A stretch of 60,712 nucleotides of DNA, the filler included. It is 6 parts of 6 records of this genome, joined end to end, with 100 filler letters (N's around TTAATTAATTAA, not from the genome) between each part and the next. Parts side by side here need not be neighbours in the genome. Positions count along the whole stretch, not along the records: positions 17,307 to 25,907 come from SRR31156797_27852; 5 more parts are not named here. One strand, given 5' to 3'. A program made the translations under genes and the position numbers. The notes below the pieces were generated by a model, which worked only from the letters and a program-made list of their open reading frames with translations, was not told the origin of the DNA and made no database searches. Shown here piece by piece: positions 5,344 to 54,236 of this stretch. The first letter of the stretch is position 1. The number at the start of each line of letters is the position of its first letter.

Positions 5344-6086
5344 CAGGCGGCCTCCTCGTTCTCTTTCTGATAGTCTTCTATGGCCTTCACCAGGTCGATC
5401 CGTCCCTCGTAGTACGCCTTACCGGTGATCACCCCCTTAACTAGATCGTCCCCCTGTTCGCATACGGTCTTCAGATCGTCCTGAGAGCTGATCCCTCCCG
5501 ACAGGGTGATCACCAGTCCCGACTCACGGGCCATGCGGTTCGTGTTCTCCAGATCAGGCCCGGCCAGGGTGCCGTCTCTGTCAATGTTGGTGTAGATGAT
5601 GTTCTCGATGCCCATCCCTGCGCAGTCCTTCGCCAGGTCGCTGTCCTTCAGGGCCGTTCCCTTCTCCCAGCCCGAGACCTTCACCTCTCCGTCCAGGGCG
5701 TCGATTCCGGCGATGAAGACGGGACCGAAGGACTGGATCCAGGCGGCCACCTTCTCGGGCTCGCGGGCCAGGACCGTGCCGACGATCAGCTTGTCCACAC
5801 CGATCTCCAGCAGCTCCCGGACATCCTCCTCGCTGCGGACGCCTCCGCCCAGTTCCAGAACGCCCTTGAAAACAGAACGTATCTTCCGTACCGCATCCCG
5901 GTTGTTCTTTCCTTCTCCCCGGGCGGCGTCCAGGTCCACCAGATGGAGCCTTTTCACTCCCATTTCCTCAAAGGCATGGGCCGCTTTTGCGGGATCCCTT
6001 TCATAGGAGGTGACTTCGTTGTAGTCCCCCTTGGTGAGGCGGACGCACTCTCCTCCCAGAAGATCGATTGCGGGTATGATAACCAT
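5340..6086 (-). CDS. hisA: ProFAR isomerase HisA
   Basis: IIPAIDLLGGECVRL, LHLVDLDAA, LGGGVR, YTNIDRDGTLAGPD, SGGI. Confidence 0.95.
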   Translation of the reverse strand: MVIIPAIDLLGGECVRLTKGDYNEVTSYERDPAKAAHAFEEMGVKRLHLVDLDAARGEGKNNRDAVRKIRSVFKGVLELGGGVRSEEDVRELLEIGVDKLIVGTVLAREPEKVAAWIQSFGPVFIAGIDALDGEVKVSGWEKGTALKDSDLAKDCAGMGIENIIYTNIDRDGTLAGPDLENTNRMARESGLVITLSGGISSQDDLKTVCEQGDDLVKGVITGKAYYEGRIDLVKAIEDYQKENEEAAW

Positions 6087-6089
6087 CTA

Positions 6090-7097
6090 TTATTCCTCTC
6101 TTAAGATTTTCCAGTTGAATGTCTCTCCGGCCCCCAGGGGAACGGCTCCGCCGATCAGTTCGGGCATGATCCAGGATCTCTTCTCCAGGGTGATGCTGTC
6201 CCTGTTCAGGGGCAGACCGTAATACTGAGCGCCCTTCTCGCTGACAAAGGCCTCCAGCCTGTCCAGGGCCCCCTCCCGTTCGAAGAGCTCAGCCAGCAGC
6301 GGCAGGGCGCAGGGCGATGTGAACACGCCTGCAGCACAGACGGGGCCCTCCTTCTTCTCCCTGGGATGGGGAGCGCTGTCCGAACCGAAGAAGAGCTTGG
6401 GATGGCCCGAGCAGACCGCGGCGACCAGAGCCCTGCGGTCCGCCTCCCCCTTTACCACGGGCTTGCAGAAGAGGTGGGGCCTCATGCCCCCGCCTATAAG
6501 ATCCTCGATGGAGTAGAGCAGATGATGCACTGTGACAGTGGCGGCGATATGGTCGGGCGTATCACTAATAAAGCTCAAGCCGTCCGCCGTCGAGATATGC
6601 TCCAGGACGATCTTCAGCCGGGGAAAGTCCCGGATAAGGGCCTCAAGCTCCCTGAGGTAAACGGTCTCCCGTTCCAGAATCGGGGCCTCAGGATCCTCAC
6701 CGTGAATGCTGAGGACGATCCCTTCTTCCTCCATTGCCGCCAGGACGTCCCTGATATCGCCGTAATGGCCGATACCGTCCTCCGCATTGGTGGTGGCGCC
6801 GGCGGGATAGAGCTTTCCGATCAGAGCGCCGGCCTTCTTCATCTCGGGGATAACAGCGGGGGGCATATCCGGCAGGAGCTTAAAGCTCATTAGCGCCTCA
6901 AAGCCGGGCGCTTCCCTCTCGATTGCTGATTTATAGGCGGCCATACCGGGAGGATCCGCTACGGGGGGGAGTGTATTGGGCATAACCAGGGCCCGGGCGA
7001 AACCCTCTGCGGTGGCCCGGACGAACTCCCCCAGGGGAGCGCCCTGCCTCAGATGCAGATGAAAATCATCGGGTTTCCGGATAAGCAGTTGTTCCAT
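6090..7097 (-). CDS. pyrC: Dihydroorotase (homodimeric E. coli type)
   Basis: PDDFHLHLRQ, MPNTLPP, KLYPAGATTN, IHGE, LEHIST, FCKP, GSDSAPH. Confidence 0.92.
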   Translation of the reverse strand: MEQLLIRKPDDFHLHLRQGAPLGEFVRATAEGFARALVMPNTLPPVADPPGMAAYKSAIEREAPGFEALMSFKLLPDMPPAVIPEMKKAGALIGKLYPAGATTNAEDGIGHYGDIRDVLAAMEEEGIVLSIHGEDPEAPILERETVYLRELEALIRDFPRLKIVLEHISTADGLSFISDTPDHIAATVTVHHLLYSIEDLIGGGMRPHLFCKPVVKGEADRRALVAAVCSGHPKLFFGSDSAPHPREKKEGPVCAAGVFTSPCALPLLAELFEREGALDRLEAFVSEKGAQYYGLPLNRDSITLEKRSWIMPELIGGAVPLGAGETFNWKILREE

Positions 7098-15775: not shown

Positions 15776-17206
15776 CTATGCTTTTTTTTCTGCAGCCAGG
15801 AAGTCGCTTACAAAGGAGTTCACATCCTTCAGGGGGATGTTCTTCTTCTCTCCGCTCTTCCGGATCTTGACCTCGACCTCCCCGGCCTCAAGGGAACGGG
15901 CGCCGATGACGATCTGCAGGGGATAACCGATGAGATCGGCGTCCTTAAATTTGAATCCGGCTCTCTCTTCCCGGTCATCCAGGGCGATATCCACTCCGAC
16001 GGCCTTCAGATCGGCGTATATCTTCTCGCCGGCCTCGACGACCTCGTCCTTGTTCATCTGCAGAGGCAGAACCACCGCTTCGTAGGGGGCGATGGCCGCG
16101 GGCCAGATCATACCGTCCTCATCATGATGCTGCTCTATGGCCGAAGCCATGGTCCGTCCCACGCCGATGCCGTAACAACCCATGACGGCGGGGTGAGACT
16201 TTCCGTCCTTGTCCAGATAGTTGCACTCCATGGGTACGCTGTACTTGGTTCCCAGATAGAAAACCTGTCCTACCTCGATCCCCCTGTGCTCCTCCAGCTT
16301 TCCCTCGCATTTGGGACATTTCTGACCCGCCTGGGCAAAGCTCAGGTCTCCCAGGATATCGGCGCTATAGTCTCTTCCGTAGTTGACGTTCACTTTGTGA
16401 TAGTCATCCCTGTTCGCTCCGCTCACCATATTGGCTCTGCCGGTAACCGAATAGTCGGCGACGATCTTCACCTTCTTCTTCAGTCCCGCAGGTCCAGCGA
16501 AACCGGTTCCCGCACCGGTGACCTCAAGAACCGCGGCATCGTCTGCCAGGAAGACGCCGTTGGCTCCGCAAAGGGTCTGAAGCTTTGACTCGTTGATATC
16601 CAGGTCACCCCGGATCAGGACGAGCACGGGTTCCTCATCGATCATATAGACGATGCTCTTGATAAAGTCCTCTTCAGGGCGCTTCAGAAAAGCGGAGATC
16701 TCCTCGATGGTTTTGCAGGCGGGGGTATGAAGGTCTTCCGCCTCCTCCAGGCCTTCCGTAAGAACGGGAGAGGCCTCCCTGGGCGTCACGGCTTTTTCCG
16801 CATTGGCGGCGTAGTCGCAGCTGTCGCAGCTCAGGATCAGATCCTCTCCGGACTTGGCCAGGACCTGGAACTCATGGCTCATATCGCCGCCTATGTTTCC
16901 CGTTGCCGCATCAACGGCGCGGAAGGTCAGCCCGCAGCGATTAAAGATGGCCGTATAGGCCTCATACATCTTCCAGTAGTTCTCTTTCGAGGCCTCTTCG
17001 TCCACATCGAAGCTGTAGCCGTCTTTCATGATGAACTCCCGTCCCCTCATCAGTCCGAAGCGGGGGCGGACCTCGTCTCGGAACTTGCCCTGAATCTGGA
17101 AGAGATTCCAGGGAAGCTGCTTATAGGATTTGAGGACCTTGGAAACCATATCGGTGATAACCTCTTCATGGGTGGGCCCCAGACAGAAATCGCCGTTCTT
17201 TCTATC
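15776..17206 (-). CDS. proS: Proline--tRNA ligase (bacterial type with editing insertion), 5' truncated
   Basis: Frame is open to the contig edge (DRKNGDFCLGPTHEE). KFRDEVRPRFGLMRGREFIMKD, GIEVGQVF, MGCYGIGVGR and an anticodon-binding domain. Confidence 0.97.
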   Translation of the reverse strand, partial: DRKNGDFCLGPTHEEVITDMVSKVLKSYKQLPWNLFQIQGKFRDEVRPRFGLMRGREFIMKDGYSFDVDEEASKENYWKMYEAYTAIFNRCGLTFRAVDAATGNIGGDMSHEFQVLAKSGEDLILSCDSCDYAANAEKAVTPREASPVLTEGLEEAEDLHTPACKTIEEISAFLKRPEEDFIKSIVYMIDEEPVLVLIRGDLDINESKLQTLCGANGVFLADDAAVLEVTGAGTGFAGPAGLKKKVKIVADYSVTGRANMVSGANRDDYHKVNVNYGRDYSADILGDLSFAQAGQKCPKCEGKLEEHRGIEVGQVFYLGTKYSVPMECNYLDKDGKSHPAVMGCYGIGVGRTMASAIEQHHDEDGMIWPAAIAPYEAVVLPLQMNKDEVVEAGEKIYADLKAVGVDIALDDREERAGFKFKDADLIGYPLQIVIGARSLEAGEVEVKIRKSGEKKNIPLKDVNSFVSDFLAAEKKA

Positions 17207-17306
17207 NNNNNNNNNNNNNNNNNNNNNNNNNNNNNNNNNNNNNNNNNNNNTTAATTAATTAANNNNNNNNNNNNNNNNNNNNNNNNNNNNNNNNNNNNNN
17301 NNNNNN
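17207..17306. other. Artificial contig linker (also at 25908-26007, 32544-32643, 44731-44830, 54137-54236)
   Basis: Identical 100-nt N44-TTAATTAATTAA-N44 blocks with stops in all six frames. Genes are cut and composition changes across them. Confidence 0.98.
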
Positions 17307-18475
17307 ATGTTCATCTCCCGGATCTGTTTTTCCGTCTCCTCATTTTCCCGGGAGCGGTTCAGAACGCCTCTCCGGGAGACCTTCCTCAGGTTGGTTATGG
17401 TTGTGTTTTCCGCACAGCTCATCTCGAGGATCAGTCCCTGCTGCTTCCTGTCTTCCGTCAGAAGGCAGAGCCCCTGCTCCACAGCCTCTTTCGGGCTGGT
17501 GATCCTAATCTCGCGGCCCTCGAGGAAGATCTGTCCCCCCTCGTTCCTGTCGGCGCCGAACAGGGCCCTTACCGTTTCGGTTCTTCCCGAACCCACCAGC
17601 CCCGCTATGCCCAGGATCTCTCCCTTGCGGAGGGTGAAGTCCTTTCTATGGGGATTGCCTTTGTAAAGCAGATCGCGGACCTCCAGAAGGGGTTCTCCGG
17701 GAATAACGCTTTCATCAAAGGGATACTCCGACTCCATACTGCGGCCGACCATCATCCTGACGATGCCGGGAATGTCCAGCTCCCCGGCCGGATGGGTTCC
17801 CACCCGGCAGCCGTTTCTGAGGACCGTCACCCTGTCCCCGATGCGGAAGATCTCATTCAGCCTGTGGGAGATATAGATGATGGAGACTCCCTCGGCCTTC
17901 AGCTTCCCCAGAAGGCCGAAGAGCGTGTCGATCTCACCGGGCATCAAGGTCGCCGTCGGCTCGTCGAGTATGAGGACCCGGCTCTTTCCGGAAAGGGCTT
18001 TGGCGATCTCCACCAGCTGCATCTGGGCGACCCCCAGATTCTCGACGGGCTGGCGGGGGGACAGCTTGTCCAGGCCCACTTTCCTCATAAGGGCTTCGGC
18101 GTCGGCATGCAGCTTCGGATAGTCCACGAGCCCGCGCTTCACAGGGAGGTTCTCAAAATAGATATTCTCGGCGATGGAAAGGAAGGGGAGAAGGTTGAAC
18201 TCCTGATAGACGACCCTCACGCCCTTTTCTATGGCATCCAGCGGGGTCTGGGGCTCATAGGCCTCGCCGTCGAAGAACAGCTTTCCGTCGGTCGGCATAT
18301 AGACGCCGCACAGGGTCTTGACGAGAGAGGACTTGCCGGCGCCGTTCTCTCCCAGAAGGATATGGATCTCACCTTCCCGGATATCAAGGTCAATCCCGTC
18401 CAGAGCCTTCACGCCGGGAAAGCTGAGAGACAGGTTCCGTATTTCTATAATGTTTTTATCTGAGTTCATTCTCAC
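17307..18475 (-). CDS. CUT2 sugar ABC transporter ATP-binding protein (RbsA-like, tandem NBDs), 3' truncated
   Basis: GENGAGKS, VYQE, LILDEPT and YISHR in NBD1. GLVGSGRTE and EDRKQQG in NBD2. Confidence 0.93.
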
Positions 18476-18482
18476 TCCAAAA

Positions 18483-18512
18483 AGCGGGAGGGAGCGATCA
18501 TCCCTTCCCGCT
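18483..18512. other. Intercistronic hairpin after the binding-protein gene
   Basis: AGCGGGAGGGA...TCCCTTCCCGCT. Such stems commonly stabilise binding-protein mRNA in ABC operons. Confidence 0.55.
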
Positions 18513-18525
18513 GTGCTACAGGCTC

Positions 18526-19482
18526 TTACTTGAAGAATTTCTTGTCAGCCAGAATCAGAGGAGACTGAACCCAACCCAGGTTTTCCCTTTCCCCGTCGAG
18601 GATTTCGAACCCTGCGTTGAAGGCCAGGATGGCCATCTCGGCACCGTCCATATGCACGGTGGCCAGCATCTTGTCGTTCATGATCAGGTCCTTGACTGCG
18701 GGGATGTTATCGAATCCCACGACCTGCACATCCGATCTGCCGGCGGCCTCGAGGGCTCTAACAACGCCCAGGGCCATGGAGTCGTTGGCGCACATAACAC
18801 CCTCCACATCAGGGTGCTTGGTGAGGAGGTTGGTCATAAGGGTATTGGCCTCTTCCGTTTCCCAATGGGCCGTATTGGAAGCCAGAAGCTCAAGATTATG
18901 GGACTCGATGGCCTTCATAAAACCGTTTTTTCTCTGCTTGGCATTGTCGGCGCCGGGATTTCCCTCGATGATGAAGACCTTGCCTCCGTCCCCCAGGGTA
19001 TCGCCGAGGTAGTTGCCGACCATCTCGGCGCCGTCGGTGTTATCGGGGCCTACGAAGAGGAACTCTTCGGGAAGCCCGGCGGCCTTAAGGGCCTCCTTGT
19101 CCAGGGTTACGTCGAAATTGATAACCGTCACGCCGGCGTCGATGGCTCTCTTTACGGGAGCGACCATTCCCGCTGAGTCGGCGGGGGCGAGGACGATCAG
19201 ATCCACGCCCTGGGTGATCAGGCTGTCGACGGCATTCACCTGGGTATCGAAATCGGTTTCCGAATTCATACCGACGGTGATAAGCTCAAAGCTGCCGTCC
19301 TTCTCGGCATAGGCCTTTGCGCCCTCTTCCATGGCCATGAAGAACTCATTGGCCAGGGACTTCATAATCAGGCCTACTACGGGCTTGCCGTCATCGGCCT
19401 TATCCTGCGCGCCGTTGGCCATCACCACGGAAGGCAGCAGCAGAAGCAGACAGATCAGCATGGAAAAGATTCTTTTTTTCAT
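18526..19482 (-). CDS. Sugar ABC transporter substrate-binding protein (RbsB-like)
   Basis: Signal peptide ending VMA-NGAQD. KSLANEFF, VLAPADS, VGPDN, CANDSMALG, VVGFD. Confidence 0.92.
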   Translation of the reverse strand: MKKRIFSMLICLLLLLPSVVMANGAQDKADDGKPVVGLIMKSLANEFFMAMEEGAKAYAEKDGSFELITVGMNSETDFDTQVNAVDSLITQGVDLIVLAPADSAGMVAPVKRAIDAGVTVINFDVTLDKEALKAAGLPEEFLFVGPDNTDGAEMVGNYLGDTLGDGGKVFIIEGNPGADNAKQRKNGFMKAIESHNLELLASNTAHWETEEANTLMTNLLTKHPDVEGVMCANDSMALGVVRALEAAGRSDVQVVGFDNIPAVKDLIMNDKMLATVHMDGAEMAILAFNAGFEILDGERENLGWVQSPLILADKKFFK

Positions 19483-19535
19483 TATGAAACTCCTTAATTT
19501 CCCCTTTGATACGGGTTTGTTCTGTCACCATCCCA

Positions 19536-19552
19536 TACAATAACTGTGCCAA
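19536..19552 (-). promoter_or_regulatory. Putative sigma54 (-24/-12) promoter of the sugar ABC operon
   Basis: Minus strand TTGGCAC-AGTTA-TTGTA against consensus TGGCAC-N5-TTGC (one mismatch at -12), about 55 nt upstream of the start codon. A sigma54 activator is encoded nearby. Confidence 0.65.
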
Positions 19553-19679
19553 AAAAATACCGATAAGGAGGGAATACCGTCTCAGACAGAAAATCAACGC
19601 CGGGGAACGGATTCAGCCCCTTCCCGCACGGGAATCCGAATATCCTCCCTCCCGGCCGATCATGCCGCAGCGGCCAGGC

Positions 19680-19740
19680 GGGCTGAACACAACTGAACAC
19701 TCTGTCAGGTGCCGTGTTCAGTATCTGGACAGTTCAGCCC
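19680..19740. promoter_or_regulatory. Putative upstream activator sequence for the sigma54 activator
   Basis: Repeated CTGAACAC half-sites and the near-palindrome TGTTCA-GTATC-TGGACA (19715-19731), about 130-190 nt upstream of the -24 box. Confidence 0.5.
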
Positions 19741-19741
19741 T

Positions 19742-21574
19742 TCAAACGGGGAAGGAGAGTCTGAAGCAGCAGCCGGCTCTCCCTTCCTCCTGCAAAAGAG
19801 AAATATCGCCGCCGTTTCGTTTCAGAATGTTGTAGCACAGGGAGAGCCCCAACCCGTAATTGGATCCCATGGTTTTGGTCGACTTGAAGGGCAGAAAGAC
19901 ATCGTTGGGATCTTCAAAGAGGATACCGGGGCCGTCGTCACGGAACAGGAGAAGGACCGTTCCCTCCCGGAGAATCAGATCCAGCCGGATCTCCCCGCCG
20001 GCGCTGAGGACCTCAAAGGAATTCTTGAAGAGATTCAGAAGGACCTGCTTAAACTCGTTTCTGTTCATTCTTACGGAAAAGCCGTTCTCTTCGCTAAAGG
20101 TGAATTTGATCCTGATATCCTTCTCTCTGCCGTTGTAACGGATCATATTGATGATCTTCCGTATTTCATCGACGGCATCGAATCTCTCGGCGCTGCACTT
20201 CTGGTTCTCCGAAAAGGAGACCAGGTTCCCGATGACCTGTGAAATATAATTGATCTGTTCGAACAGATAGTCGAAGATGGCCGGCTTCTCATCCTCGGCG
20301 ACCTTCTCCATCTTAAAGGATTCGAGATAGTTGGAGATGACCCCCAGCGGATTGTTTATCTCGTGAGCCACTCCGGCGGCCAGGAGGCCGAGAGACGCGA
20401 GCTTCTCGGAAAGGACGAGCTGGTCTCTCAAACGCTCCCTTTCGGTGATGTCCTCGATAATAAACATATTGCCGATGAGAATCCCTCCGTCCAAGATCGG
20501 AAAAACGGCGACATTCACCGTATAGGCGACGGCGTTCAGGCTGAGGGGAAGGTTGTACCGGGAACAGCTCTCCCTGAGCTCCTGGGCCTCATTCAGCAAC
20601 GTCACGATATCGGGATTTCCCTGGAAAAGCTCTTCCACGCTTATGTTCCGGAGTTCCGACTGGCTGTCCAGCCCCAGGAATTCCATGGCGCTTTCGTTCA
20701 CCATCCTGATCCTGTGATCGTAGTTGCTCACGATAAGGCTTATGGGAAGCTGCTTGAGGATGACCTCGTTGTATTTGAGAAGCTTACTGAATTCATGGGC
20801 CTGGGCCTGTTCGTCTTCCAGCCTCGAGAACTGGGTATAGGCCATTTTTATCAAACTGATCTTATCCAGCTCGCGTATGTCATCGCTTATAATGACCTTC
20901 CCCTTTCTCACGACGCTCACCCGGTCGGCGATCATGTAAAGGTCATCGATCCGGTGGGTGATGAAAAGGATCAGCGAACCCTTTTCCTTCAGGCTCCTGA
21001 GGATCTGGATGACCCGTTCAAGCCCCTGGGCCGACAGCTTCTCCAGGGCCTCGTCCAGGATAAGGACCTTCGGAGGAAAATAGAGATTCTTGACGATGCT
21101 GAGGAGCGCCCGGTCCGACAGCTCGAGGCTTGAGACCTTTGCCTTGGGATTCAGATGGATGCGGCTCTCCCTGAAATAAGCCTCGGTCAGCCTGGTCACT
21201 TTTTTCTGACTGAAGGAGGCGCCCCTGGACTGGAACTCCTTCTTGTTGGCAATGAACATATTCTCAGCTACCGTAAGGGAGTCGTTGAGCTGCATCTTTT
21301 GGAAGACCATCCGAACCCCTGCGTCGATGCTCTCCTTGTAACTCATCCGAGAGTAGGGTTCGCCCTGAAAATAGACCGCTCCCGTATCCGGAGAGATCAG
21401 GTGGGAGACCGTCATCGCAAGGGTGGACTTACCCGCTCCGTGTTCGCCGACCACCGCATGGATCTCTCCCGCGCGGAAGGACAGGCTGATGCGGTCCAGA
21501 GCCTTGATGGCGCCGAATCTGATTGAAACATCCCTCAGCTCCAGAAGGATTTCGGGGGGCTTATTCGATGCCAT
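19742..21574 (-). CDS. ABC-ATPase domain-PAS-histidine kinase fusion protein
   Basis: aa 1-245: GEHGAGKST, VFQ, LILDEA, FITHR. Then a PAS-like region ending IEDITERE, H-box GVAHEINNPL, N-box QVLLNLFKNS, DDGPG and GLGLSLC. No transmembrane helix is evident. Confidence 0.9.
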   Translation of the reverse strand: MASNKPPEILLELRDVSIRFGAIKALDRISLSFRAGEIHAVVGEHGAGKSTLAMTVSHLISPDTGAVYFQGEPYSRMSYKESIDAGVRMVFQKMQLNDSLTVAENMFIANKKEFQSRGASFSQKKVTRLTEAYFRESRIHLNPKAKVSSLELSDRALLSIVKNLYFPPKVLILDEALEKLSAQGLERVIQILRSLKEKGSLILFITHRIDDLYMIADRVSVVRKGKVIISDDIRELDKISLIKMAYTQFSRLEDEQAQAHEFSKLLKYNEVILKQLPISLIVSNYDHRIRMVNESAMEFLGLDSQSELRNISVEELFQGNPDIVTLLNEAQELRESCSRYNLPLSLNAVAYTVNVAVFPILDGGILIGNMFIIEDITERERLRDQLVLSEKLASLGLLAAGVAHEINNPLGVISNYLESFKMEKVAEDEKPAIFDYLFEQINYISQVIGNLVSFSENQKCSAERFDAVDEIRKIINMIRYNGREKDIRIKFTFSEENGFSVRMNRNEFKQVLLNLFKNSFEVLSAGGEIRLDLILREGTVLLLFRDDGPGILFEDPNDVFLPFKSTKTMGSNYGLGLSLCYNILKRNGGDISLLQEEGRAGCCFRLSFPV

Positions 21575-22886
21575 ACTTCCTCATCTTGCTGTAGAGGGTC
21601 GTCCGGCTCATATTCAGGGTCCGGGCGACCTTCTTCTTATTAAACTGGGACCTTTTCAATTCGCTGATGATGATCTCCTTCTCCGAGAGATCCAGGACAC
21701 CCAGGCCTTCGGAGCCGGAGACATGTTCCCGGATCCTGGCCGGGAGATCGGAGGTTCTTATGATGCCGTCTTCCGTAAGGGCGCAGGCATACTGGAGAGC
21801 GTTTTTCAACTCTCTGATATTACCGGGCCAGTCATAGGCGAACATCCTTTCCCGCACCTCATTATCCAGGAGGAAGGGGCGTCCCAGGCTCTGAGAGTTC
21901 TCCTTCAGGAAGGTTTCCGCCAGTATGCCGATATCCGACAGCCGATCCCTCAGAGGCGGTATGGCGACGGTCGCCGCATTCAGTCTGAAAAAAAGATCCT
22001 GCCTGAACTTCTTCTGAAGTATCAGATCCTCAAGATTCTTGTTTGTGGCGGAGATGATCCTGACGTTGACCTTGATAAGCTCTTTGCCGCCCAGCCTGTA
22101 GAGTTCCTGATTCTGCAGTACCCGCAGGACCTTCGCCTGAACCTCCAGAGACATATCCCCTATTTCGTCCAGGAAAAGGGTGCCCCCGTCCGCCCTTTCG
22201 AACACACCCTTATAGAGGCTGTCGGCGCCTGTATAGGCCCCCTTCTCATGTCCGAAGAGCTCGTTATCCAGCAGGTTGTCGGGAAAGGCCGCGCAATTGA
22301 TCTTAATGAATGCCTGCGAAAACCTGCCGCTTCGCCCGTAGATATAGTTTGCGAACAGCTCCTTTCCCGTTCCGTTCTCGCCATACAAGAGGATGGGGAT
22401 ATTCGCGGAGGTCAGCTTCCCTATCTCTTTTTTCAGGCTGTTCACAAGCGGATCGTTACTCACTATTTTAAAGGTTTTCCCGCCCGCGCCCGCCGGCACC
22501 GTAACCTTTGAGAAAGCGGCCTGACGTCCGGACAGGTTCTTCTCGATAACCCTGACAAACTGATCATAGGACACGGGCTTCTGAATGTAATCGGCCGCCC
22601 CCTTCTTCATGGACTCAACGGCCGTCTCGATGGTTCCGAAGCCCGTCAGCATGACAACGGGGATATGGGGATACTCCCTCAGCATACTACCCAGGAGATC
22701 GATCCCCGAGTCATTGCCCAGGCGGATATCCAGGAGGGTGAGCTCCGGGGCCTCCCTCTTCAGCAGAGCGAAGGCCTCTTCCCGACCGGCCGCGGGGAGC
22801 ACCCTATAGCGCTCATCGCTCAGCATGCGGACCAGGCTCATCCTGAACTGTTCGTTATCATCGACAAGAAGAATTTTAATGGACAA
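21561..22886 (-). CDS. Sigma54-dependent NtrC-family response regulator
   Basis: Receiver (LLVDD, LLDIRL, MLTG, QKP), AAA+ (GENGTGKE, ELFGHEKGAYTGA, LFLDEIG, WPGNIREL) and Fis-type HTH. Overlaps the kinase start by 14 nt. Confidence 0.95.
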   Translation of the reverse strand: MSIKILLVDDNEQFRMSLVRMLSDERYRVLPAAGREEAFALLKREAPELTLLDIRLGNDSGIDLLGSMLREYPHIPVVMLTGFGTIETAVESMKKGAADYIQKPVSYDQFVRVIEKNLSGRQAAFSKVTVPAGAGGKTFKIVSNDPLVNSLKKEIGKLTSANIPILLYGENGTGKELFANYIYGRSGRFSQAFIKINCAAFPDNLLDNELFGHEKGAYTGADSLYKGVFERADGGTLFLDEIGDMSLEVQAKVLRVLQNQELYRLGGKELIKVNVRIISATNKNLEDLILQKKFRQDLFFRLNAATVAIPPLRDRLSDIGILAETFLKENSQSLGRPFLLDNEVRERMFAYDWPGNIRELKNALQYACALTEDGIIRTSDLPARIREHVSGSEGLGVLDLSEKEIIISELKRSQFNKKKVARTLNMSRTTLYSKMRKYGIE

Positions 22887-23176
22887 TGCTCAGCTCCTGC
22901 GCCGGTCGGATGCGGAGGATCCGGCATCCCCGTATATTGGCATTACAAACCTTCCCTGCCGTTCCACGGCTTTCGATATCCTGAACGGCCGACGGCGTGC
23001 TGTCATGATAAACGCATAGAACCCGGCCGTCAATGTTTATTAAACATTTACTTAATTTCAACTAAAACTCATGCTTACGGAGATAATATAATGTTTTTCT
23101 TTACAACAGTCCCCCCGTTGCCTAGTCTTATTAGAAGCAAACAATTGATCTGAATTTGATCTTCGAGGATAGAGTC

Positions 23177-24364
23177 ATGCCCTCAGGTATTCCCAGCTAT
23201 TTCGCCCCGGCGGAACGGGATGATGACATTGCCATACATTCTGAACTCCAACTGATTATGGAGAATCCCATTCTGGATACCCTTCTCTCATCCATAGGCG
23301 GTCTGGTGGCGGTTCTCAACGACAAAAGACAGATCCTGATGGTCAACCAGGTCCTTTTGAACCAGCTGGGAATCAGGGATATCGACTGCATACTCGGACA
23401 GAGACTGGGAGAGGCGGCGGAATGCGTCCATGCCCATGACATGGCAGGGGGCTGCGGTACGGGCCCCTACTGCGCCACCTGCGGAGCCGTTATTGCGATG
23501 GAATCGACCCGGCTGGAGCAGAAGCCCTTTGAAGCGAAATGCTATATAGAAAAGGACGACCGCGGGCAATCCGTCGATCTGAGCTTCAGCGTCCGCACGA
23601 GCCCGGTCTGCGTTGAAGGATTGGAACTCATTCTCATCATTCTGAGGGATATTTCATCGGAAGAACGCTGGAACATGCTGGAAAGGACGTTTTTCCATGA
23701 TCTGAATAATATCATCGGCTCTCTGACAGGCTCGATGGAGATGATGAAGCTGGGAAGCAGGGGGAAGAAGAGCCGGGAGGTACAGCAGCTCCAGAGATCC
23801 GCCCAGAGGCTGGTGGAAGAGGTGGCCGTCCACAGGGTACTCTGTGAGGACGAAGGCTACAGGGAGTTAACCGGCAAAGAGTACTTCCCTGTGGAAGAGC
23901 TGACCGGAGCCCTGACGCTTCAGTATTCATCCCACCCGGTCGGCCGGGGAAAGACCCTTGAACTAGAGCGTCATGATGGCAATCGGATGATCTACTCCAA
24001 CAAGACTCTCATACTGAGGGTGTTGGGAAACATACTGACCAATGCCTTCGAGGCCACGGGCAGGGCGGGCCGGATCCTGTTCAGTACGGAAGACAGGGGG
24101 GAGGCCGTTGTTTTTTCGGTGTGGAACGACCAGCACATCCCGGAGAAGCATGCATTGAGGGTCTTCCAGAGGAACTACAGCACAAAGGCGGAGAAGGGCC
24201 GCGGCCTGGGCACATTCGGAATGAAACTGTTCGGCGAGAAGATACTGGGCGGGAAGGTTGATTTCACAAGCTCTCCGGAAGAGGGAACGACCTTCCGCTT
24301 CACCCTTCCCCTGAACACGGCGGACAGCGGCCCGAAGAACGAGAGATCGAATCATAATCATTAA
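23177..24364 (+). CDS. Soluble histidine kinase with a Cys-rich PAS-like input domain
   Basis: CVHA...GCGTGPYCATC inside a PAS-like region. FFHDLNN H-box, NILTNAFEA, FQRNYSTK, GRGLGTF. Confidence 0.85.
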   Translation: MPSGIPSYFAPAERDDDIAIHSELQLIMENPILDTLLSSIGGLVAVLNDKRQILMVNQVLLNQLGIRDIDCILGQRLGEAAECVHAHDMAGGCGTGPYCATCGAVIAMESTRLEQKPFEAKCYIEKDDRGQSVDLSFSVRTSPVCVEGLELILIILRDISSEERWNMLERTFFHDLNNIIGSLTGSMEMMKLGSRGKKSREVQQLQRSAQRLVEEVAVHRVLCEDEGYRELTGKEYFPVEELTGALTLQYSSHPVGRGKTLELERHDGNRMIYSNKTLILRVLGNILTNAFEATGRAGRILFSTEDRGEAVVFSVWNDQHIPEKHALRVFQRNYSTKAEKGRGLGTFGMKLFGEKILGGKVDFTSSPEEGTTFRFTLPLNTADSGPKNERSNHNH

Positions 24365-24466
24365 TAAACTCATATTTATAATTAATATTGGATAAGCTCC
24401 GGAAGAACGATTATTCTATAAGTTACGATCGCTTATTTATCGTCAGCGCGTTCAAGGAGTTAAACA

Positions 24467-25907
24467 GTGAAACAGATGAAAGTCAGAACCAAGCTTCTGC
24501 TCAGCTTTTCCGCCCTGATCGCTTTTTCCGTCATCATAAGCCTTTCCGGATCCATGGGCATCAATACCCTGAAAAAGCAGTGTCTGGTAGAATCGGAGAT
24601 CACATCGGCCATGAACCATGTCCAGAACATGCAGTCAGATTCCCTGAGATTCGTCATCTACGGCAAAGATTCCTATATGGAAAATATGGCCGCGGAATTC
24701 GAGTCGGTCAAAACGGTTACGCAAAGGCTCCTTCTCGAGATCGACAACACCGCCCTTCTCAAGCAGATAAAAGATCTGGAAGAGGCCGCAGGGGAGTATC
24801 TGGAGCGCAACATGGAATTCTACGCCCTTCACCAGGAACTGAATGCCATCTCCCAGGCCAGAGAGGCATCGGCGGCGCTGATTCTGGAAACCACGGAGGA
24901 TCTGATCCATCGCTACCAGTCATCGGAGAACAACATAGAAATCCTCTTTCAGGCTGAAAAGGCCCTTATGGAGGTCCATCGCTTTCACAACAGCGCCTAT
25001 CTCTACCTTTTGAGCAACGACAGGCAGGCGAAAGAGGGCCATCTCTCCGACTGGCTGACGGGGACGGAAGAAGCAAGGGCGAGCTTCTCCGCCCTGAACC
25101 GCTCCCTGGGCAATGGGAACCGGGAGATCCTGAATGCTCTGGAAGAGTTTGACAGCTACAGGGATAACGTCAGGCTCTTTACGTCTGTGGAGCAGGAGCA
25201 GAAGGCGCTGATGCCCAGGGCGAAGGAAGCGGCGGGCAAGGTCGTTCAAAGCGGAGAGACCGCCATCCTGAGCATCAGACAGACCATGGACGAGGCCATC
25301 CGCAACAACCTTATCATCAATATGGCTATCCTGCTGGTCATCATACTGTTCAGCTCTGTGATCAGCATAGTCCTTACCCGGTCGCTGACCCGACAGCTCG
25401 GCGGGGAACCCTATGAGATCATGGACATCGCCCATGAGATCTCCACGGGAAACCTGGCTCTCAGTTTTTCGGCCGGAAAGAAGACGGGAGTCTACCACTC
25501 CATGCATGAGATGACCCTCAAGCTGAGGGAGATCGTCGAATCCATCATCCGCTCGTCCTCAGAGGTTTCCAAGGGAAGCGAGCAGATCGCCGCCTCCTCC
25601 GAGGAAATTTCCGCAGGCACCAGCGAGCAGGCCTCCAATATGGAGGAGGTCTCCGCCTCCCTCCAGCAGCTCACGGCCAATATCCAGCAGAATTCGGAGA
25701 ACGCCCAGCAGTCCAGCCTGATGGCGACACAGGTCTCCCGGGATTCCAGGGAGGGCAGCCAGGCCGTATCCGAAACCCTGACAGCCATGACCGACATCGC
25801 CGAGAAGATATCGATCATCGAAGAGATCGCCCGGAGCACGAACATGCTCGCCCTTAACGCCGCCATCGAAGCGGCCCGGGCCGGCGAGGCGGGCAAGGGA
25901 TTTGCCG
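24467..25907 (+). CDS. Methyl-accepting chemotaxis protein, 3' truncated
   Basis: Two TM helices, LGGEP HAMP-like segment and [30 protein letters not shown] signalling motif. Confidence 0.95.
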
Positions 25908-26116
25908 NNNNNNNNNNNNNNNNNNNNNNNNNNNNNNNNNNNNNNNNNNNNTTAATTAATTAANNNNNNNNNNNNNNNNNNNNNNNNNNNNNNNNNNNNN
26001 NNNNNNNATAGTCGTAATTTCATTTTCTTTGATCTTTGAATTGCTTCCCGCTGATTACTCGGACAAACGCAAATTTTACCTGAGTTCATTTACGCAATCA
26101 GCGAACAGTATTTTAT

Positions 26117-32543: not shown

Positions 32544-32667
32544 NNNNNNNNNNNNNNNNNNNNNNNNNNNNNNNNNNNNNNNNNNNNTTAATTAATTAAN
32601 NNNNNNNNNNNNNNNNNNNNNNNNNNNNNNNNNNNNNNNNNNNTGTATAAGAAACTAATTAAAATTT

Positions 32668-33397: not shown

Positions 33398-36300
33398 ATG
33401 CAAAATTTTATTAGTTTACAGCGATGGAAGCGGTATTTATTTAATTTGTTTTTGATACTGGGAATGATAGGTTTTACTAGTTCAATGTATGCCAAATCAT
33501 ACAATGACATAACTTTTGGTAACGTTACTAGTAATGATATTGGAACGACATATGAGTCGGAGGTTTATTTTTCAAGTAGCTCAAAGGGATCAGAGTTTAC
33601 GATAACTATTACGAATATTTATAAAAGTGGAAGTACAGCATATTTGGAATTTACCTCTACGAAAAATCTGAATCATATTTATGGTACTAGTTCAGCAAAA
33701 AATAAAGATGATGAAGAACAAAGTTATATACTGCTCGATTCCGAGAAGATGGAATTGGTTTCTGAAAGCAACACAAGAGATTATGTTTTTAAAATGGACA
33801 ATGTGAGCACTAGTTTAGCTGATTTAGAATTTACGCCTCACTTAATTCATGGTAATAACATTATAGGTGGAGCGGTAACTACAACAGGGAATGATTCAGA
33901 TTACTCTATGGAACTTAGTGTAATAGATGCAACAGGAATTGTTTCAAGTAGAGAGTTTCTTGCAGTTGATGATGATGAAATATTTGAGGAAAGTAAAGTA
34001 GTTAAAGGTACGACAATTGTTAACCTTTCAGCTGAAAGTACAGCTGATGATGATGCAACAGCTTTATACTATCAATTTAATTCAACTCAAACAACGGATG
34101 AAAATAGTTGGGTAGAAGTAGTACTTGATTACTCAGATACCTCAGATGTTAACTTGGATAGTCAAGGATATTTAACATATAAATCCTATAACGTTGAGCA
34201 TATACCAGGTTTAAGTGATGGTTACTCAATAGATGTTGTTGATGAATATTGGTCAGATCGAGAAATAGTATTTGCGTATCCATTTTCAACAACAGGTGAG
34301 TTAAGTACAGAATTGTCTGAATCTGTTAATTGGAGCTCCGGTGATGGTGACAATACTTCGACATCTTATGGAACGTGGAGTGATATAGCTGATTACGAAG
34401 TTACTCAATTGCTAAGTGGAACTAAAAAAACGATAATTAAAGAGTGGCAACCTAATACTGTGTTTCTAGAAAACGATTGGATAAGTGGAGAATATAAGGC
34501 CTCATATAAATTTTGGGGATATGTTACTGTGCCTAAGACAGATACATACTACTTTGGAATGAGGGCGGATGATGGAAATCGTGGATACATTGTTATTGAT
34601 GGAGAAGAAGTGGAAATTGCAGAAAGTTTCCAGCTCCAAGGAAGTACATATTCATCTTCAAAAAATTCATTCTATTTAGAAAAAGGGAAATATTATCCGA
34701 TATATCTAGAATATTTTAACTGGGGTGGATCAGCAGATTATAGAGTTCTTTATAGTACTGATTCAGCAACTAGTGTAGAAAGTGAAAATACACAAGTTCC
34801 TGCAGACTGGCTTTACCCTTCGAATAGTACTTATCCAGGAGAAACATCTGGAGGGAAATTTTATGGGACAACACAATTACAACTTCCTTCTGACGATGGA
34901 GAGTACTATGTTGCAACAAAACTTGAATCTGAAAATAAGGTACAAGGAAAAACTGTAATTGAAGTAGAATTATCCGGTATAACAGGACCATTTGAAGTAA
35001 TTGATTATGATTCACTTACTGTTACAAAAGAAATTCTTAACAAAACAGTAACAAATGGTGAAGTGGTTATAGGAATAGATGAAACATTTACAGTTAGATA
35101 TACTCTTACACCGAAAGATTGGGATGAGAGTAAAGGTTCAGATGGAATGTCAATAACAAATATCAGATTAGCTGATATATATCCTACAGAAGCAGAAATT
35201 ACAGGTAATTCAGGATTTTCTGATATATCAATTGATAGTTCAACAGGAGCAATAAGTGCTCAAATAGCTGATATAACTTATAGCTTGGTAAATGGAAATT
35301 TAGTTGCTAATCCTGTGACTTTAGATATTACAGTTACTATCGATACAGCAGGGGAATATACATTTAGTAATTCAGGAAAATCAATAGCTAGTTATACAGA
35401 TGTTGATGAATATACTCAAAATGAAAAGGAATTTTCTCTACTTAATGTTGTAGTTGGGGGAGATATAACTAATTTAAGTATATTAGAAATCACAGATAAA
35501 GGTCATTCAGATCTTGAGAGTGTAATCCCCGATACTGTTAGCCTTACAACGATATCGATTAAACAATATGTTTCATTAAGAAAACAAATAGAAGGATTAT
35601 ATGATGTTGTTTATTTCGGAACTGGTGACTATATTGATACTGAATTAGGATCTGGTTCAGGTGGAGATGTAGGCAGACATGCAACAAGTGACATAATGAA
35701 TGATATAACGGATTTAAAAGCTAATGAAATAAAAAATAAATTCATTGCAAATGGATATTTAGTATTATTTCATGATGATATATTTGATGCTTCAAATTTA
35801 AACACACATTTTTCTACATATAAAACATCTGGAACATCAACTGTTAAAACAGTAGAATCTCCTAATGATGCACTAACAGCAATGTATCTTTATTCGGATA
35901 GAAGACCGACTTTAGAAGTAAGTAATACGTCAGACGGTGCAACATATAGTGATGGTGATAGTTTTAGTTTGACATATACAACAGATTCAGGTAGCTATAC
36001 TACAAAACTTTATGTCGATACTGACTATGATAATATAAATGAAAATTCAGAGATCGAAGCAACGAGCTCTACCGGAACAATATCATATACAATACCTCAT
36101 TCATTATCTGGTATTAGACCTTGGACGTTAGAAATAACTGATACTGATACTGGTCAGAAAAATATTAAAACAGGTTACTTTATAGTTAAAGATACAACTG
36201 TTGTAGTTGATGTATTACAAGTTACAGTTGATACGAATTATAAAGGAAGCTTAACAAACTCATCAAACATGACACAGGAATATTTAAGTGATGAAGATAA

Positions 36301-39300
36301 AGATTACCAAATTAACATTACTGTTATTGATATGGATACATTTAATAATACAGCGTATCAAAACATTAATGGATCATACGATATGATTTTATTCGGATTC
36401 CAAGATGTTTATGGGAGTAAAGCTCTGAGTGATGATGCTAAAGCAGCACTAGATGAATTCATTGCAACGGATCAGAGTGTTATGTTTACTCATGATATGT
36501 TATTCCAGAGTTCACCTACTTGGAGTGATTATCTAAGTGTATTTGGACAAAAAACTCCGGAACATAATTTAGGTAAAGGTGCACCTGCAACAACAACAAA
36601 CACTCAGAAAGTAAATGAAGGTATTATTACCATGTACCCATTTGATCTATCTGATAATATTAGTATTGCAACTACCCATAACCAGTATTTTACACTTGAT
36701 TTAGAAGATGAAGATATAATACCTTGGTATAATTTAAGTGGTAGTGATAGAGATGTATATGATAGTTATAATCATTATTATATATATTCTAAAGGAAGTT
36801 TAACATACTCAGGAACTGGGCATAGTGGAGGAAACTTCCCGGATTCGGAGCAACAATTATTTGTTAATACAATGTATCGAGCGTTCTTAGGAGCAAGAAA
36901 CCATAATCCAATAATCACAATTGTTTCTCCTGAATTAGATACAACTATTAACAAAGATGACTCACTTGAGAATAGTGAATTATTGAATCTTCAAGTTAAA
37001 ATTGAAGATTTAGATGTAGAAGATACGGAACTTGATGCTATAATCTATGTTGAAGGCATAGAAGTATATAATGGAACTGTTACAAGTGGAGATACTTTAA
37101 TGCCAGAGGATATGGACTTTACAAATGTTGTATTCGAAGGAAGAGATATAGATATTAAAGTTGTTGCAACAGATTCATCTAATGCAACAGATGAAGAGGA
37201 AGTAGCAATAGCTTATAATTCAAAATCAGCACCTGTGATAACAGCATTTACTATTAAAAATAATACGCTTGCAGAATTATTAGATAGTTTGAAAGATGAA
37301 AATGGTGGAACGCTATTTAATTCAACAGACGATTATTCAAACTATGACCTACTTAACGGAGGAGTACCTTATTTTAAAACAGGAGATGAATTAGATATTT
37401 CATTAACACTTACTGATGATAGTTTTTCAGTTGATGAAGATGGAAATATTAAACTTGATGAAAATGGTTTCCCTGTAGATATTAACTTCGATTGGACAGT
37501 GTTTGGCATAGTAGGTAATCCTGTTGTGGTTTATGATACTGAAACAGGAGAGTTAAAAATAGACTTCACAGTTACTGTAATAGGAACTACGGAATCAACT
37601 CAAACGGCACTGTTCTCAAGTGAAGGAATAGTTGATACGTATGGTAACACGACTGATACAAGTGATAAAGTTGGAGCTCTTGATAATACTCCGTTGTCAG
37701 ATGCAAGTGTTGAACTTGAAGAGGAAACAGCAGTTAAAAACGAATGGTATTTAGGTATTAAACACGCTGATGATTATAAATTAAAAATTACTAACGCATC
37801 GAATAATGCTTTGGCTTATATAATAATATATGACTATGATTACAGTAAGTCTGATAAGACTTCTGATACAAATGATCTAAATAATGCATTAAGTGGAAAT
37901 ACAAAATGGGTAGCTGTTAGAAATGCTGCTAATGAATTAGGTTCTACTTTAATAGAAGCAAATGACTCAACTCAGGACTTTAGCGGTAATGGATTTACTG
38001 TTGAAACAGGCAGAAATACGAATACAGCTATTAATCTAAGCTCGGCAGGTTATGTTGTAGTTCAAGACGGACAAGGGAACAGTAACACTATCAATATAAA
38101 TGCAAGCTCAGGAAGAGATACAGTTTATTTCAATGAAATATCAGGAAGTAATAACAATTATAATGGTTCGGGTAATAATGACACACTTTTATTAGGAAAA
38201 ACTCAATCTGAATACACGATTACAAATTACACTAATAATAATGGAATTATTTCCGCAAATATTAAAGATAATTCTACAGGCAAAACGTTACAAGTTAACA
38301 ATATTGAATCTATTCAATATGGCAGTGATGCAAGTATTACGTTACCAATAGATACAACAAATAATAAATATGACGGTCAGTATATTACCAGAAGAGTTAT
38401 TGCAATCGATAGAGCAGGAAATATGCTTAAGAGTGAAAGTGGTTCAACAACGGTAAGTAGTATTTCTGATATAACAGTTGGAACAACAGCAAAACTAACT
38501 CACTATGTGGATACAATTGCACCAATGGTTAAAACATTTACTATAAGCAACACTACACAGGGAACGAGTAGCGACTTGTTGGCTGTAAACCCTGATGAGT
38601 TCTATGGTAATCCTAACGACCAAGTTGTAATTGATTTAGAGTTTGTTGATGAGAATTTAGATTTAACGGATTTAACTTCAATTACAAGTTTATCAGTACT
38701 TGCGAATGCGGGAATTACTTTAAACTCAAATCTGTTTGATAGTACTATAGCGATAACAGAAAATAGTGGAGTTTATTCAATTAACGCAACTGTTAGTACT
38801 TTGTCTGAAAGTTATAGTGGAGACGAACTAGAAATTATTACGACGGCAAATATAATAGATAGGGCAGAGAATGCATTAACTGATATTTCTCGAAATATAA
38901 AAGTAGATAATACTCCACCATTAGTAACAGTATTTACAATAACGAATACAACGCAAAGTGGTTCAACAGTAAATATGTTATCAGAAAATGCAGATAGTGT
39001 AGCAGCAACGAATGGAGATTCATTAACGATCTCACTAACATTGAAAGATGCGAACTTTAAATCAACATCAGTTTTAAGTGGAGCAAGTTATACATTATCG
39101 CAATTAAGCACAATTTATGGAGTAAGCTTAAGCAGTAGCTTATTTGATGAAAACATAACATTGACAGTAGTAGATAATGAAGACGGAACGTTAACCTTTA
39201 CAATAGTAGCAATAGTAGCAACAGTAGGAAATACAGGAGATGGATCTACAAATATCTTCGACTCAGTAGCATTAGTAGATAAATTCGGAAATCAAGCAGC

Positions 39301-44621: not shown

Positions 44622-44830
44622 ATGTCTTTGAAAGTTTCGTCTATTTTGATTTTGTTTTATGTGAAAATATGAATCTCATTTACACTCTGATGGCGAAACC
44701 CTTTTTTATGATATGGGAAAGTATAAACTTNNNNNNNNNNNNNNNNNNNNNNNNNNNNNNNNNNNNNNNNNNNNTTAATTAATTAANNNNNNNNNNNNNN
44801 NNNNNNNNNNNNNNNNNNNNNNNNNNNNNN

Positions 44831-54136: not shown

Positions 54137-54236
54137 NNNNNNNNNNNNNNNNNNNNNNNNNNNNNNNNNNNNNNNNNNNNTTAATTAATTAANNNNNNNN
54201 NNNNNNNNNNNNNNNNNNNNNNNNNNNNNNNNNNNN

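Follow-up and report, generated by a model that had tools for sequence, protein, structure and literature searches.

A histidine kinase with a built-in ABC ATPase domain beside the genes of a CUT2 sugar importer

Why should a histidine kinase carry the kind of ATPase domain found in sugar importers, and could this domain serve to connect the kinase with an importer encoded next to it? The question is raised by a 60,712-nucleotide stretch of DNA (the window), in which one open reading frame (ORF) on the minus strand, at 19742-21574, joins an ATP-binding cassette (ABC) nucleotide-binding domain (NBD) to a PAS domain and a histidine kinase core, beside genes of a CUT2-type sugar importer. A preliminary description of the window had proposed that the co-opted NBD docks on the sugar permease, or senses the ATP state, so that transport would be translated into autophosphorylation. 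In the reading preferred here, the kinase belongs to a two-component system which induces the neighbouring sugar importer, and its ATPase domain docks on the permease as the signal input; resting in part on a structural model, this reading is given roughly even chances. The evidence for the fusion itself, for its ancestry and for its probable regulatory target is presented in turn, followed by the evidence for and against docking.

The fusion protein, its relatives and the ancestry of its ATPase domain

The kinase gene and its parts are arranged as follows:

19742..21574, minus strand: NBD-PAS-HisKA-HATPase_c sensor histidine kinase, 610 aa (P0001), defined by the ORF, Pfam, homologues and an AlphaFold model
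20837..21550, minus strand: input domain, an ABC NBD, residues 9-246 (Pfam, profiles and BLASTP; boundaries from the AlphaFold model)
20741..20836, minus strand: conserved junction and linker, residues 247-278 (alignment; AlphaFold model)
20450..20740, minus strand: PAS domain, residues 279-375 (PAS_4 above cut-off; AlphaFold model)
19748..20446, minus strand: kinase core, comprising DHp/HisKA (377-458) and HATPase_c (463-609) (Pfam, alignments and structure matches)

The ORF comprises 610 codons at the coordinates given in the preliminary description, and the plus-strand frame over the same interval is full of stops. Four Pfam domains exceed their cut-offs: ABC_tran at residues 26-177 (80.3 bits against a cut-off of 25), PAS_4 at 273-381 (26.9 against 23.1, E 5.9e-06), HisKA at 395-456 (38.1 against 26.9) and HATPase_c at 505-609 (54.8 against 26.4). 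The AlphaFold model of the monomer, with a mean predicted local distance difference test score (pLDDT) of 78, resolves the NBD (9-246), the PAS domain (279-375), the DHp domain (377-458) and the catalytic domain (463-609), and its pLDDT falls below 50 at 247-268 in the linker. The latter is preceded by a helix, DKISLIKMAYTQ (237-248), and bears an EF..LLKYNE..L..LP motif; in alignment A1, K238, L241, Y246, T247, Q248, F262, Y268, N269, E270, L273, L276 and P277 are invariant at the junction and linker. In the kinase core the phospho-acceptor His404 sits in the sequence HEINNPL and the N, G1, F and G2 boxes are present, features which, together with the HisKA and HATPase_c scores, identify the protein as a HisKA-class sensor histidine kinase. 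Invariant core residues in the same alignment are N514 and N518, D546-G548-G550, F560 and F563, and G574-L575-G576, and the core matches the structures of ZraS (9jfj_A, 2.2e-25) and 3a0r_A (3e-24). No membrane helix is evident in a hydropathy scan of the 610-aa kinase or in its AlphaFold model, as had been noted previously. The top 19-residue hydropathy window (2.0, residues 355-373) lies within predicted beta strands of the PAS domain, and since no other window is strongly hydrophobic, the kinase is, as modelled, a soluble protein.

At least six draft contigs make up the window, linked to one another by runs of N, which form five pairs (17207-17306, 25908-26007, 32544-32643, 44731-44830 and 54137-54236); the linker at 17207-17306, the one such junction that was read, encloses a six-frame stop spacer, TTAATTAATTAA. 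Because the linkers join separate contigs, the contig of the kinase spans 17307-25907 only. A window assembled in this manner is what favours the idea that assembly produced a chimera here, or that the fusion gene is decaying and functionless, an idea which the remaining evidence renders scarcely credible. The junction between the NBD and the PAS domain, near 20827, is bridged by contigs from two other runs: in Logan run X2 a 10,103-base contig spans 19483-22886 with 48 differences and 0 gaps, and in run X3 a 446-base contig (20566-21011) has 0 differences. Run X1, which may be the source sample, was left out of this evidence. Full-length proteins that are 98% and 82% identical occur in a different assembly and on a 5-Mb contig, respectively, and the gene order is kept in 17 genomes. 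A set of 120 listed relatives was taken from a large protein collection, in which the family comprises at least 120 clusters at 90% identity; all 120 of these homologues are 586-641 aa long and carry ABC_tran, HisKA and HATPase_c. The bridged junction and the full-length homologues therefore argue that the fusion is not a chimera, and decay is contradicted by the conservation of all catalytic and phospho-acceptor residues across the family. Short contigs of the metatranscriptome run X7, with 1-18 differences each, also cover parts of the stretch, although presence in an RNA library does not equal transcription.

The family extends over several lineages. Besides the two proteins just mentioned there is one of 64% identity named Oceanispirochaeta crateris, relatives of about 42% identity carry the labels KSB3, Moduliflexus, Vecturithrix, Desulfomarina and Spirochaetota, and family labels as a whole include Spirochaetota, KSB3/Moduliflexus and Desulfobacterota records. 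In a scan of a genome collection, the matches listed were mostly plain kinases, the true fusions among them being loci L001-L004 and L062. Four candidates from Acidoferrum/Acidiferrales (L006, L020, L028 and L039), which looked full length in tblastn, proved to be a kinase beside a separate small ABC or unlabelled gene and were excluded from the counts. In a phylum-level sample around genome G001, where locus L003 is labelled Spirochaetaceae, full-length matches occurred in at least 13 of 401 genomes; with three candidates scored per genome, this number is a lower bound. In the ESM Atlas the cluster of the kinase itself has 62 members (score 0.99). Further clusters with ABC_tran and HisKA score lower and have either Spirochaetota (515 aa) or Actinomycetota (826-852 aa) as their commonest label; those of the Actinomycetota type, with ABC_tran, HisKA and HATPase_c and in one case GAF_2, reach 0.83 and are at the level of leads. 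Such leads may indicate that the fusion of an NBD to a kinase has arisen more than once, with a second, possibly independent, family.

The motifs quoted in the preliminary description are all present in the NBD: Walker A GEHGAGKST (43-51), the Q-loop with Gln92, Walker B LILDE (171-175) and the H-loop ITHR (205-208), so that K49, Q92, D174, E175 and H207 form the ATP-site residues. LELSDRA (150-156) replaces the LSGGQ signature and ALEKL (176-180), following Walker B, constitutes an altered D-loop. The conservation of these elements was assessed in an alignment of 146 members (121 proteins from the collection, the query included, and 25 from the loci described below), in which duplicates between the two sets were kept and two short locus ORFs, L124 (482 aa) and L125 (525 aa), were taken in. 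The Q-loop Gln, the Walker B Asp and the phospho-acceptor His are each kept in 146/146, the Walker A Lys in 145/146, the catalytic Glu in 142/146 and the H-loop His in 131/146, and the TVAENLF segment after the Q-loop is likewise conserved. The preservation of the elements which bind ATP and attack it in cis shows that they are under selection. At the signature position the family has L-x-L-S-D, with LSGGQ absent from the commonest variants, and its D-loop is a conserved motif of the ALEKLS type (L177 in 124/146, E178 in 127/146, K or R179 in 140/146). The domain is hence an ABC NBD by its ABC_tran profile match and its Walker A, Q-loop, Walker B and H-loop, and departs from the canon in both the LSGGQ signature and the D-loop; to judge from the alignment, a new surface, conserved and specific to this family, has taken the place of the elements that act in trans in an NBD dimer.

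The origin of the domain can be traced to the first NBD (NBD1) of the tandem CUT2 ATPases. BLASTP aligns the kinase with NBD1 of the neighbouring ATPase at 34% identity over 236 residues (E 7e-41), bearing out a likeness previously drawn by eye, and with the second domain (NBD2) at 26% (E 4e-8); the helix DKISLIKMAYTQ at the domain end aligns with the end of the same NBD1. In the neighbouring tandem ATPases, NBD1 has GENGAGKST, a weak signature (such as LSVGKQQ) and the H-loop His, and NBD2 has a Walker A without Lys (GxGRTE), no H-loop His and a canonical LSGGNQQK; the kinase NBDs share the GExGAGKS and ITHR features of NBD1. Profile matches over residues ~4-250 point to the same relatives (MglA 1.6e-47, YtfR 2.2e-47, AraG 5.7e-47, RbsA 8.5e-43), and the kinase is no equivalog of these ATPases, being matched over NBD1 only and scoring far under the cut-offs (162.3 against 828 for MglA, 146.8 against 745 for RbsA). 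A tree was built from 24 kinase NBDs, 22 NBD1 and 21 NBD2 domains; the window's truncated NBD2 was left out of it, along with kinases below 560 aa and ATPases below 480 aa. All kinase domains fall into one clade (support 0.985) and the NBD2 domains into another (1.0), and NBD1 is not a single clade. The ATPase domain of the kinase is thus, as far as phylogeny and alignment can indicate, an offshoot of CUT2 NBD1 with a single origin. Taken together, the tree, the BLASTP match to NBD1 and the aligned helix give the fusion the look of a CUT2 ATPase in which, on a single occasion in the distant past, a PAS-DHp-catalytic module took the place of NBD2.

The adjoining importer operon as probable regulatory target

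The genes and sites around the kinase on its contig are:

21561..22886, minus strand: sigma-54-dependent response regulator (Pfam: Sigma54_activat 8.7e-64, Response_reg 6.2e-24, HTH_8 3.7e-12)
19680..19740, no strand: cluster of short inverted and direct repeats, CTGAACAC / GTGTTCAG and GGGCTGAAC / GTTCAGCCC, directly past the kinase stop
19537..19551, minus strand: candidate sigma-54 -24/-12 site, TGGCAC-N5-TTGT, 55 nucleotides (nt) ahead of the ATG of the binding-protein gene
18526..19482, minus strand: RbsB/AlsB-like periplasmic sugar-binding protein (Peripla_BP_4 9e-63; RbsB 6.6e-48, under the equivalog cut-off)
17307..18475, minus strand: CUT2 tandem-NBD sugar ABC ATPase, 5' part (~390 of ~500 aa), matching XylG/AraG/RbsA-type profiles to position ~390 of 500

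The regulator gene, which is absent from the preliminary description, overlaps the start of the kinase gene by 14 nt at its stop. Its product consists of a REC domain, an AAA+ sigma-54 interaction domain, a lid and HTH_8, with GENGTGKE and a GAYTGA loop in the translation, and it is closest to AtoC/NtrC in a profile comparison. GAYTGA is an accepted variant of the GAFTGA loop, and the protein combines the REC domain, the sigma-54-interacting AAA+ domain with a GAFTGA-type loop and the DNA-binding helix-turn-helix of an NtrC-type regulator. Kinase and regulator make up a sigma-54 pair of the NtrB/NtrC type. The binding protein has a signal-like hydrophobic stretch at its N-terminus. The ATPase gene is cut by the contig end and the N-linker, and the permease gene expected downstream therefore falls outside the window. 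Genes on the two sides of a linker, such as the N-terminally cut proline-tRNA ligase (15776-17149) and the ABC ATPase, are without demonstrated adjacency.

The surroundings of the kinase were compared for 25 fusion genes, situated at 24 loci in 17 genomes. In 25/25 the gene immediately upstream, on the strand of the kinase, encodes a sigma-54 regulator. A complete CUT2 set (binding protein, ATPase and BPD_transp_2 permease) adjoins the kinase in 21/25, which agrees with the synteny with CUT2 operons anticipated in the preliminary description. The set is partial in 3/25: L004 has the binding protein only, one copy in L062 has the ATPase and permease at the edge of the stretch, and L120 is a 5.4-kb contig. 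In the remaining case (L113) it is absent, and genes for a LacI-type regulator, an FGGY kinase, a class II aldolase/epimerase and L-arabinose isomerase follow. Genomes with 2-3 kinase paralogues have one CUT2 operon for each paralogue. In L062 (2941-9791), two regulator-kinase pairs stand back to back and divergent, each facing a separate CUT2 operon; at 632 aa, one of the two regulator ORFs is exceptionally long. The transporter adjoining the kinase of L115 has a single-NBD ATPase (5603-6400, minus strand, 265 aa) instead of the usual tandem one, with the fully canonical motifs GSNGAGKST, LSGGQRQ, IIMDEPT and ISHE. A pairing of the NBD1-like kinase domain with a stand-alone NBD2-like ATPase was considered and rejected, as this ATPase, the only one with a single NBD that was found, is canonical.

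The promoter evidence of the window is equivocal when taken by itself. Exact TGGCAC-N5-TTGC has 0 matches in the window, and the site at 19537..19551 differs from it by one mismatch, having GT and not GC in the -12 element, at a density of about 2.7 one-mismatch sites expected per window by chance. Both facts count against the site, which is weak alone given that expectation and draws its support from its position and from the relatives. There a strict filter was applied, which required GG and GC, tolerated no more than one mismatch elsewhere and reached up to 300 nt upstream. Strict sites precede 12/28 CUT2 operon starts, 0/25 regulator genes and 2/140 other genes of at least 200 aa. The two other genes (L107 6514, 289 aa; L111 6304, 216 aa) are unlabelled and stand first in CUT2 operons, between the regulator gene and the binding-protein gene and on the strand of the latter. 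The gene rpoN is present in 5/5 carrier genomes tested. From this distribution of sites, together with rpoN, the regulator-kinase two-component system most likely activates the adjoining CUT2 importer operon from a -24/-12 promoter. The repeats at 19680-19740 are possibly an activator-binding (enhancer) site for this purpose, or else a terminator.

The signal input: proposed docking on the permease and its alternatives

If a soluble kinase is to control a binding-protein-dependent importer, the periplasmic signal must have some way of reaching it, and the domain it carries is the one which, in a real transporter, is seated on the permease. A complex model was made for the L108 permease and residues 1-262 of the L108 kinase, with a separate alignment for each. 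It scores 0.61 against 0.00 for the best of 3 controls, a mark reached by 58/80 solved complexes and 2/110 mismatched pairs, counts which apply only approximately to a model made, as here, with our own alignments. Across the runs the contact agreement is at least 74% and the partner pLDDT at least 79. The modelled contacts follow the textbook pattern and join permease residues 191-215, a conserved cytoplasmic GGN..A...SGI loop, with kinase residues 86-127, which take in the Q-loop and the first part of the helical subdomain. In transporters the Q-loop Gln links the ATP site to the membrane subunit. A sequence search of the Protein Data Bank for a solved CUT2 permease structure gave 0 matches. 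ABC importers in general have been solved, however, and close cousins of true partners pass the score (10/12 colicin pairs), so that the model indicates a groove which is still compatible with the permease loop and not binding by the kinase copy as such. In these terms the groove of the kinase domain is compatible with the loop in the model, and to this extent the model supports the docking proposed in the preliminary description; the conservation and covariation tests lend it no specific support.

A number of results weigh against docking. The window itself contains no permease gene, and the complex score is blind between the kinase domain and any CUT2 NBD1. Conservation at the predicted contact columns does not exceed that elsewhere in the domain, and at these columns the similarity of the kinase to NBD1 is 0.75 against a domain average of 1.33 (permutation p 0.93). 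The kinase groove is no closer to the NBD1 groove of the same locus than to those of other loci (z 0.25, p 0.40), and it is less alike the same-locus NBD2 groove (z -2.5). The divergence of the kinase NBD follows that of the permease with r ~0.53, against 0.92 for NBD1 and 0.88 for NBD2 of the true ATPase. Each adjoining transporter, moreover, has its own ATPase and hence no need of the kinase domain, and docking would require competition with that ATPase or a separate pool of permease. An interface-specific Mantel correlation gave no excess for the kinase NBD over 19 loci; the true NBD1 and NBD2 controls show no interface excess either, which leaves this test powerless at 19 loci. A weak hint in favour of docking comes from within the kinase, where the correlation with permease divergence over the 19 loci is higher for the NBD (r 0.58) than for the PAS domain (0.445) and the kinase core (0.35).

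Should docking take place, the following course of events may be envisaged. The two NBD1-like domains of a kinase dimer would seat on the coupling loops of the CUT2 permease dimer through the groove formed by the Q-loop and the helical subdomain, taking the place of the transporter's own ATPase or competing with it. Both composite ATP sites would pair consensus Walker A, Walker B and H-loop elements with a degenerate signature, from which bound ATP and at most slow hydrolysis are expected. A sugar-loaded binding protein on the periplasmic face would favour the ATP-dependent closure of both NBDs, and closure would pass through the conserved C-terminal helix, the linker and the PAS domain to the DHp helices, where it would set kinase activity. 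The complex of permease and kinase would then act as a receptor and not as a pump. MalK-type ATPases have regulatory domains, which the dimeric C-terminal module beneath the NBD dimer may resemble by analogy. This more specific proposal, that the kinase dimer takes the ATPase's position on a CUT2 permease dimer to form a non-transporting ABC "transceptor", with NBD closure by the loaded binding protein as the kinase switch, is put forward tentatively, its chances being somewhat short of even.

The alternatives differ in where they place the signal. It may be cytoplasmic, in which case the PAS domain would bind the imported sugar or a metabolite, and the NBD, off the permease, would act as an ATP-dependent dimerisation clamp or as an input for the ATP/ADP energy state. 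The solubility of the kinase, the conservation of the PAS domain across the family and the lack of special conservation in the predicted permease contacts are all in keeping with this. So too are the kept cis ATP residues and remodelled trans elements, which fit a new NBD-NBD or NBD-PAS interface, and locus L113, which has no transporter nearby and only arabinose catabolic genes with a LacI-type regulator. A generic energy sensor would not, however, be expected to occur one-to-one with CUT2 operons (21/25 full, 3 partial). The Q-loop Gln kept throughout the family, the conserved TVAENLF after it, the controls passed by the complex model and the closer tracking of permease divergence by the NBD than by the PAS domain or kinase core also speak for the permease, and a cytoplasmic signal is considered rather unlikely, at about one chance in four.

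Still less probable is a flux sensor of the Bce kind, in which the kinase NBD transiently joins the ATPase of the working transporter, or competes with it for the permease, and reports flux or spare capacity. The catalytic site of CUT2 ATPases is formed by the NBD1 Walker motifs and the NBD2 LSGGNQQK, and an NBD1-like domain could in principle pair with NBD2; in tandem ATPases, however, NBD2 is already paired within the same chain, as is well established. The adjoining transporters keep a complete ATPase, as flux sensing would have it, and the sensing of flux through an ABC transporter is established for Bce systems, according to the accessible part of PMC8534201. Against this, the canonical single-NBD ATPase of L115 needs no NBD1-like partner, and the kinase groove is, if anything, less like the NBD2 groove of its own locus. 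Docking on the permease as the signal input thus remains the preferred reading, at the even chances stated at the outset.

Other genes of the window may be recorded here. On the same contig and divergent from the regulator gene, 23156-24364 (plus strand) encodes a 402-aa protein with HATPase_c as its sole domain (1.7e-15), followed at 24467-25907 (plus strand) by a gene for a methyl-accepting chemotaxis protein, which the contig end truncates. These two might belong to the same sugar-sensing circuit, for example in chemotaxis towards the sugar. Elsewhere, a 3213-aa ORF (33398-43039, plus strand) with PA14 (9.5e-10) as its sole Pfam match has the appearance of a giant adhesin-like or other surface protein of unknown family, and 54454-58653 (minus strand) encodes a 1399-aa SNF2-family helicase (SNF2-rel_dom 3.7e-69, Helicase_C 5.7e-25) with an unannotated N-terminal part of ~950 residues.

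Relation to known systems and wider meaning

The kinase combines features of two well-known groups of proteins. With NBD1 of the CUT2 ATPases (RbsA, MglA, XylG, AraG and YtfR) it shares the type of Walker A, the Q-loop, the Walker B-Glu, the H-loop and the C-terminal helix, and a weak signature is found already in the true ATPases. It differs from them in having a single NBD, a signature and D-loop specific to its family, a PAS-DHp-catalytic module in the place of NBD2, and a clade of its own. Its PAS-HisKA-HATPase_c portion resembles AtoS/ZraS/NtrB-like kinases, matching AtoS at 3.7e-52 and ZraS at 2.1e-33, with the same HEINNPL H-box and a REC/AAA+/HTH_8 partner. It is nevertheless under the equivalog cut-offs of both AtoS (177.5 against 646) and ZraS (115.8 against 479), and unlike these kinases it has no membrane or periplasmic sensor, an ABC NBD as input and a sugar importer operon as target.

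A functional kinship may be sought among systems in which transport informs gene regulation. In MalK-MalT and PstB-PhoU-PhoR the motor subunit of an ABC transporter passes the transport state to gene regulation. There, the working motor ATPase acts on a separate regulator, whereas the present kinase contains a motor-domain copy of its own, dedicated and non-canonical. In BceAB-BceS a two-component system controls the operon of an ABC transporter which is apparently used as the sensor, as described in the accessible part of PMC8534201. The transporter-coupled two-component logic is alike. BceS, however, is a separate two-helix membrane kinase which touches the permease in the membrane, and its transporter is an exporter-type resistance pump, whereas the kinase of the window is soluble, its proposed contact is by way of a fused NBD, and its partner genes are those of a binding-protein-dependent CUT2 sugar importer. 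The absence of a membrane helix and the CUT2 partner genes likewise set it apart from the Bce-type intramembrane-sensing kinases.

Covalent fusion of a transporter component to a histidine kinase, as its input, is known from CbrA/CrbS, which are SLC5-STAC-kinase fusions (PMC5715377, PMC7096432), and from KsAmt5, an Amt-kinase fusion (PMC8534201), as far as the accessible parts of these sources go. These proteins fuse the membrane-spanning, substrate-binding part, whereas the kinase considered here fuses the cytoplasmic motor domain and would see the substrate indirectly. AtcS of Treponema denticola was examined as a possible relative and rejected; a membrane kinase that lacks a sensor domain (PMC12070737), it is unrelated. 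None of BceAB-BceS, KsAmt5, CbrA/CrbS, MalK-MalT and Pst-PhoU-PhoR fuses an ABC motor domain to a kinase. The accessible part of the 2005 signal-transduction census (PMC1183210) makes no mention of an NBD-kinase architecture, and in agreement with the preliminary description no characterised NBD-PAS-HisKA-HATPase_c protein was found in the literature searched, supplements and most subscription journals aside. The architecture has apparently been catalogued by automated annotation, which names both halves, and has remained unstudied.

The kinase brings a new input module to a signalling logic that is already known. How transport state comes to govern gene regulation is understood for only a few systems, where the coupling runs through separate proteins; with the coupling element covalently built into the kinase, the flow of the signal from ABC motor to DHp domain becomes dissectable in one polypeptide. 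The constant pairing of the kinase with a sigma-54 activator, and with an operon defined as its target, offers a ready genetic read-out, along with many natural variants. If the docking model is true, the ABC NBD joins the list of kinase input modules, and the fusion would provide a scaffold for sugar biosensors with the specificity of the binding protein; if it is wrong, the domain would be a new kind of ATP-dependent cytoplasmic input. Should the transceptor proposal also hold, the family would offer a new route by which a soluble kinase can sense a periplasmic ligand, and the first ABC power stroke to serve as a signalling stroke.

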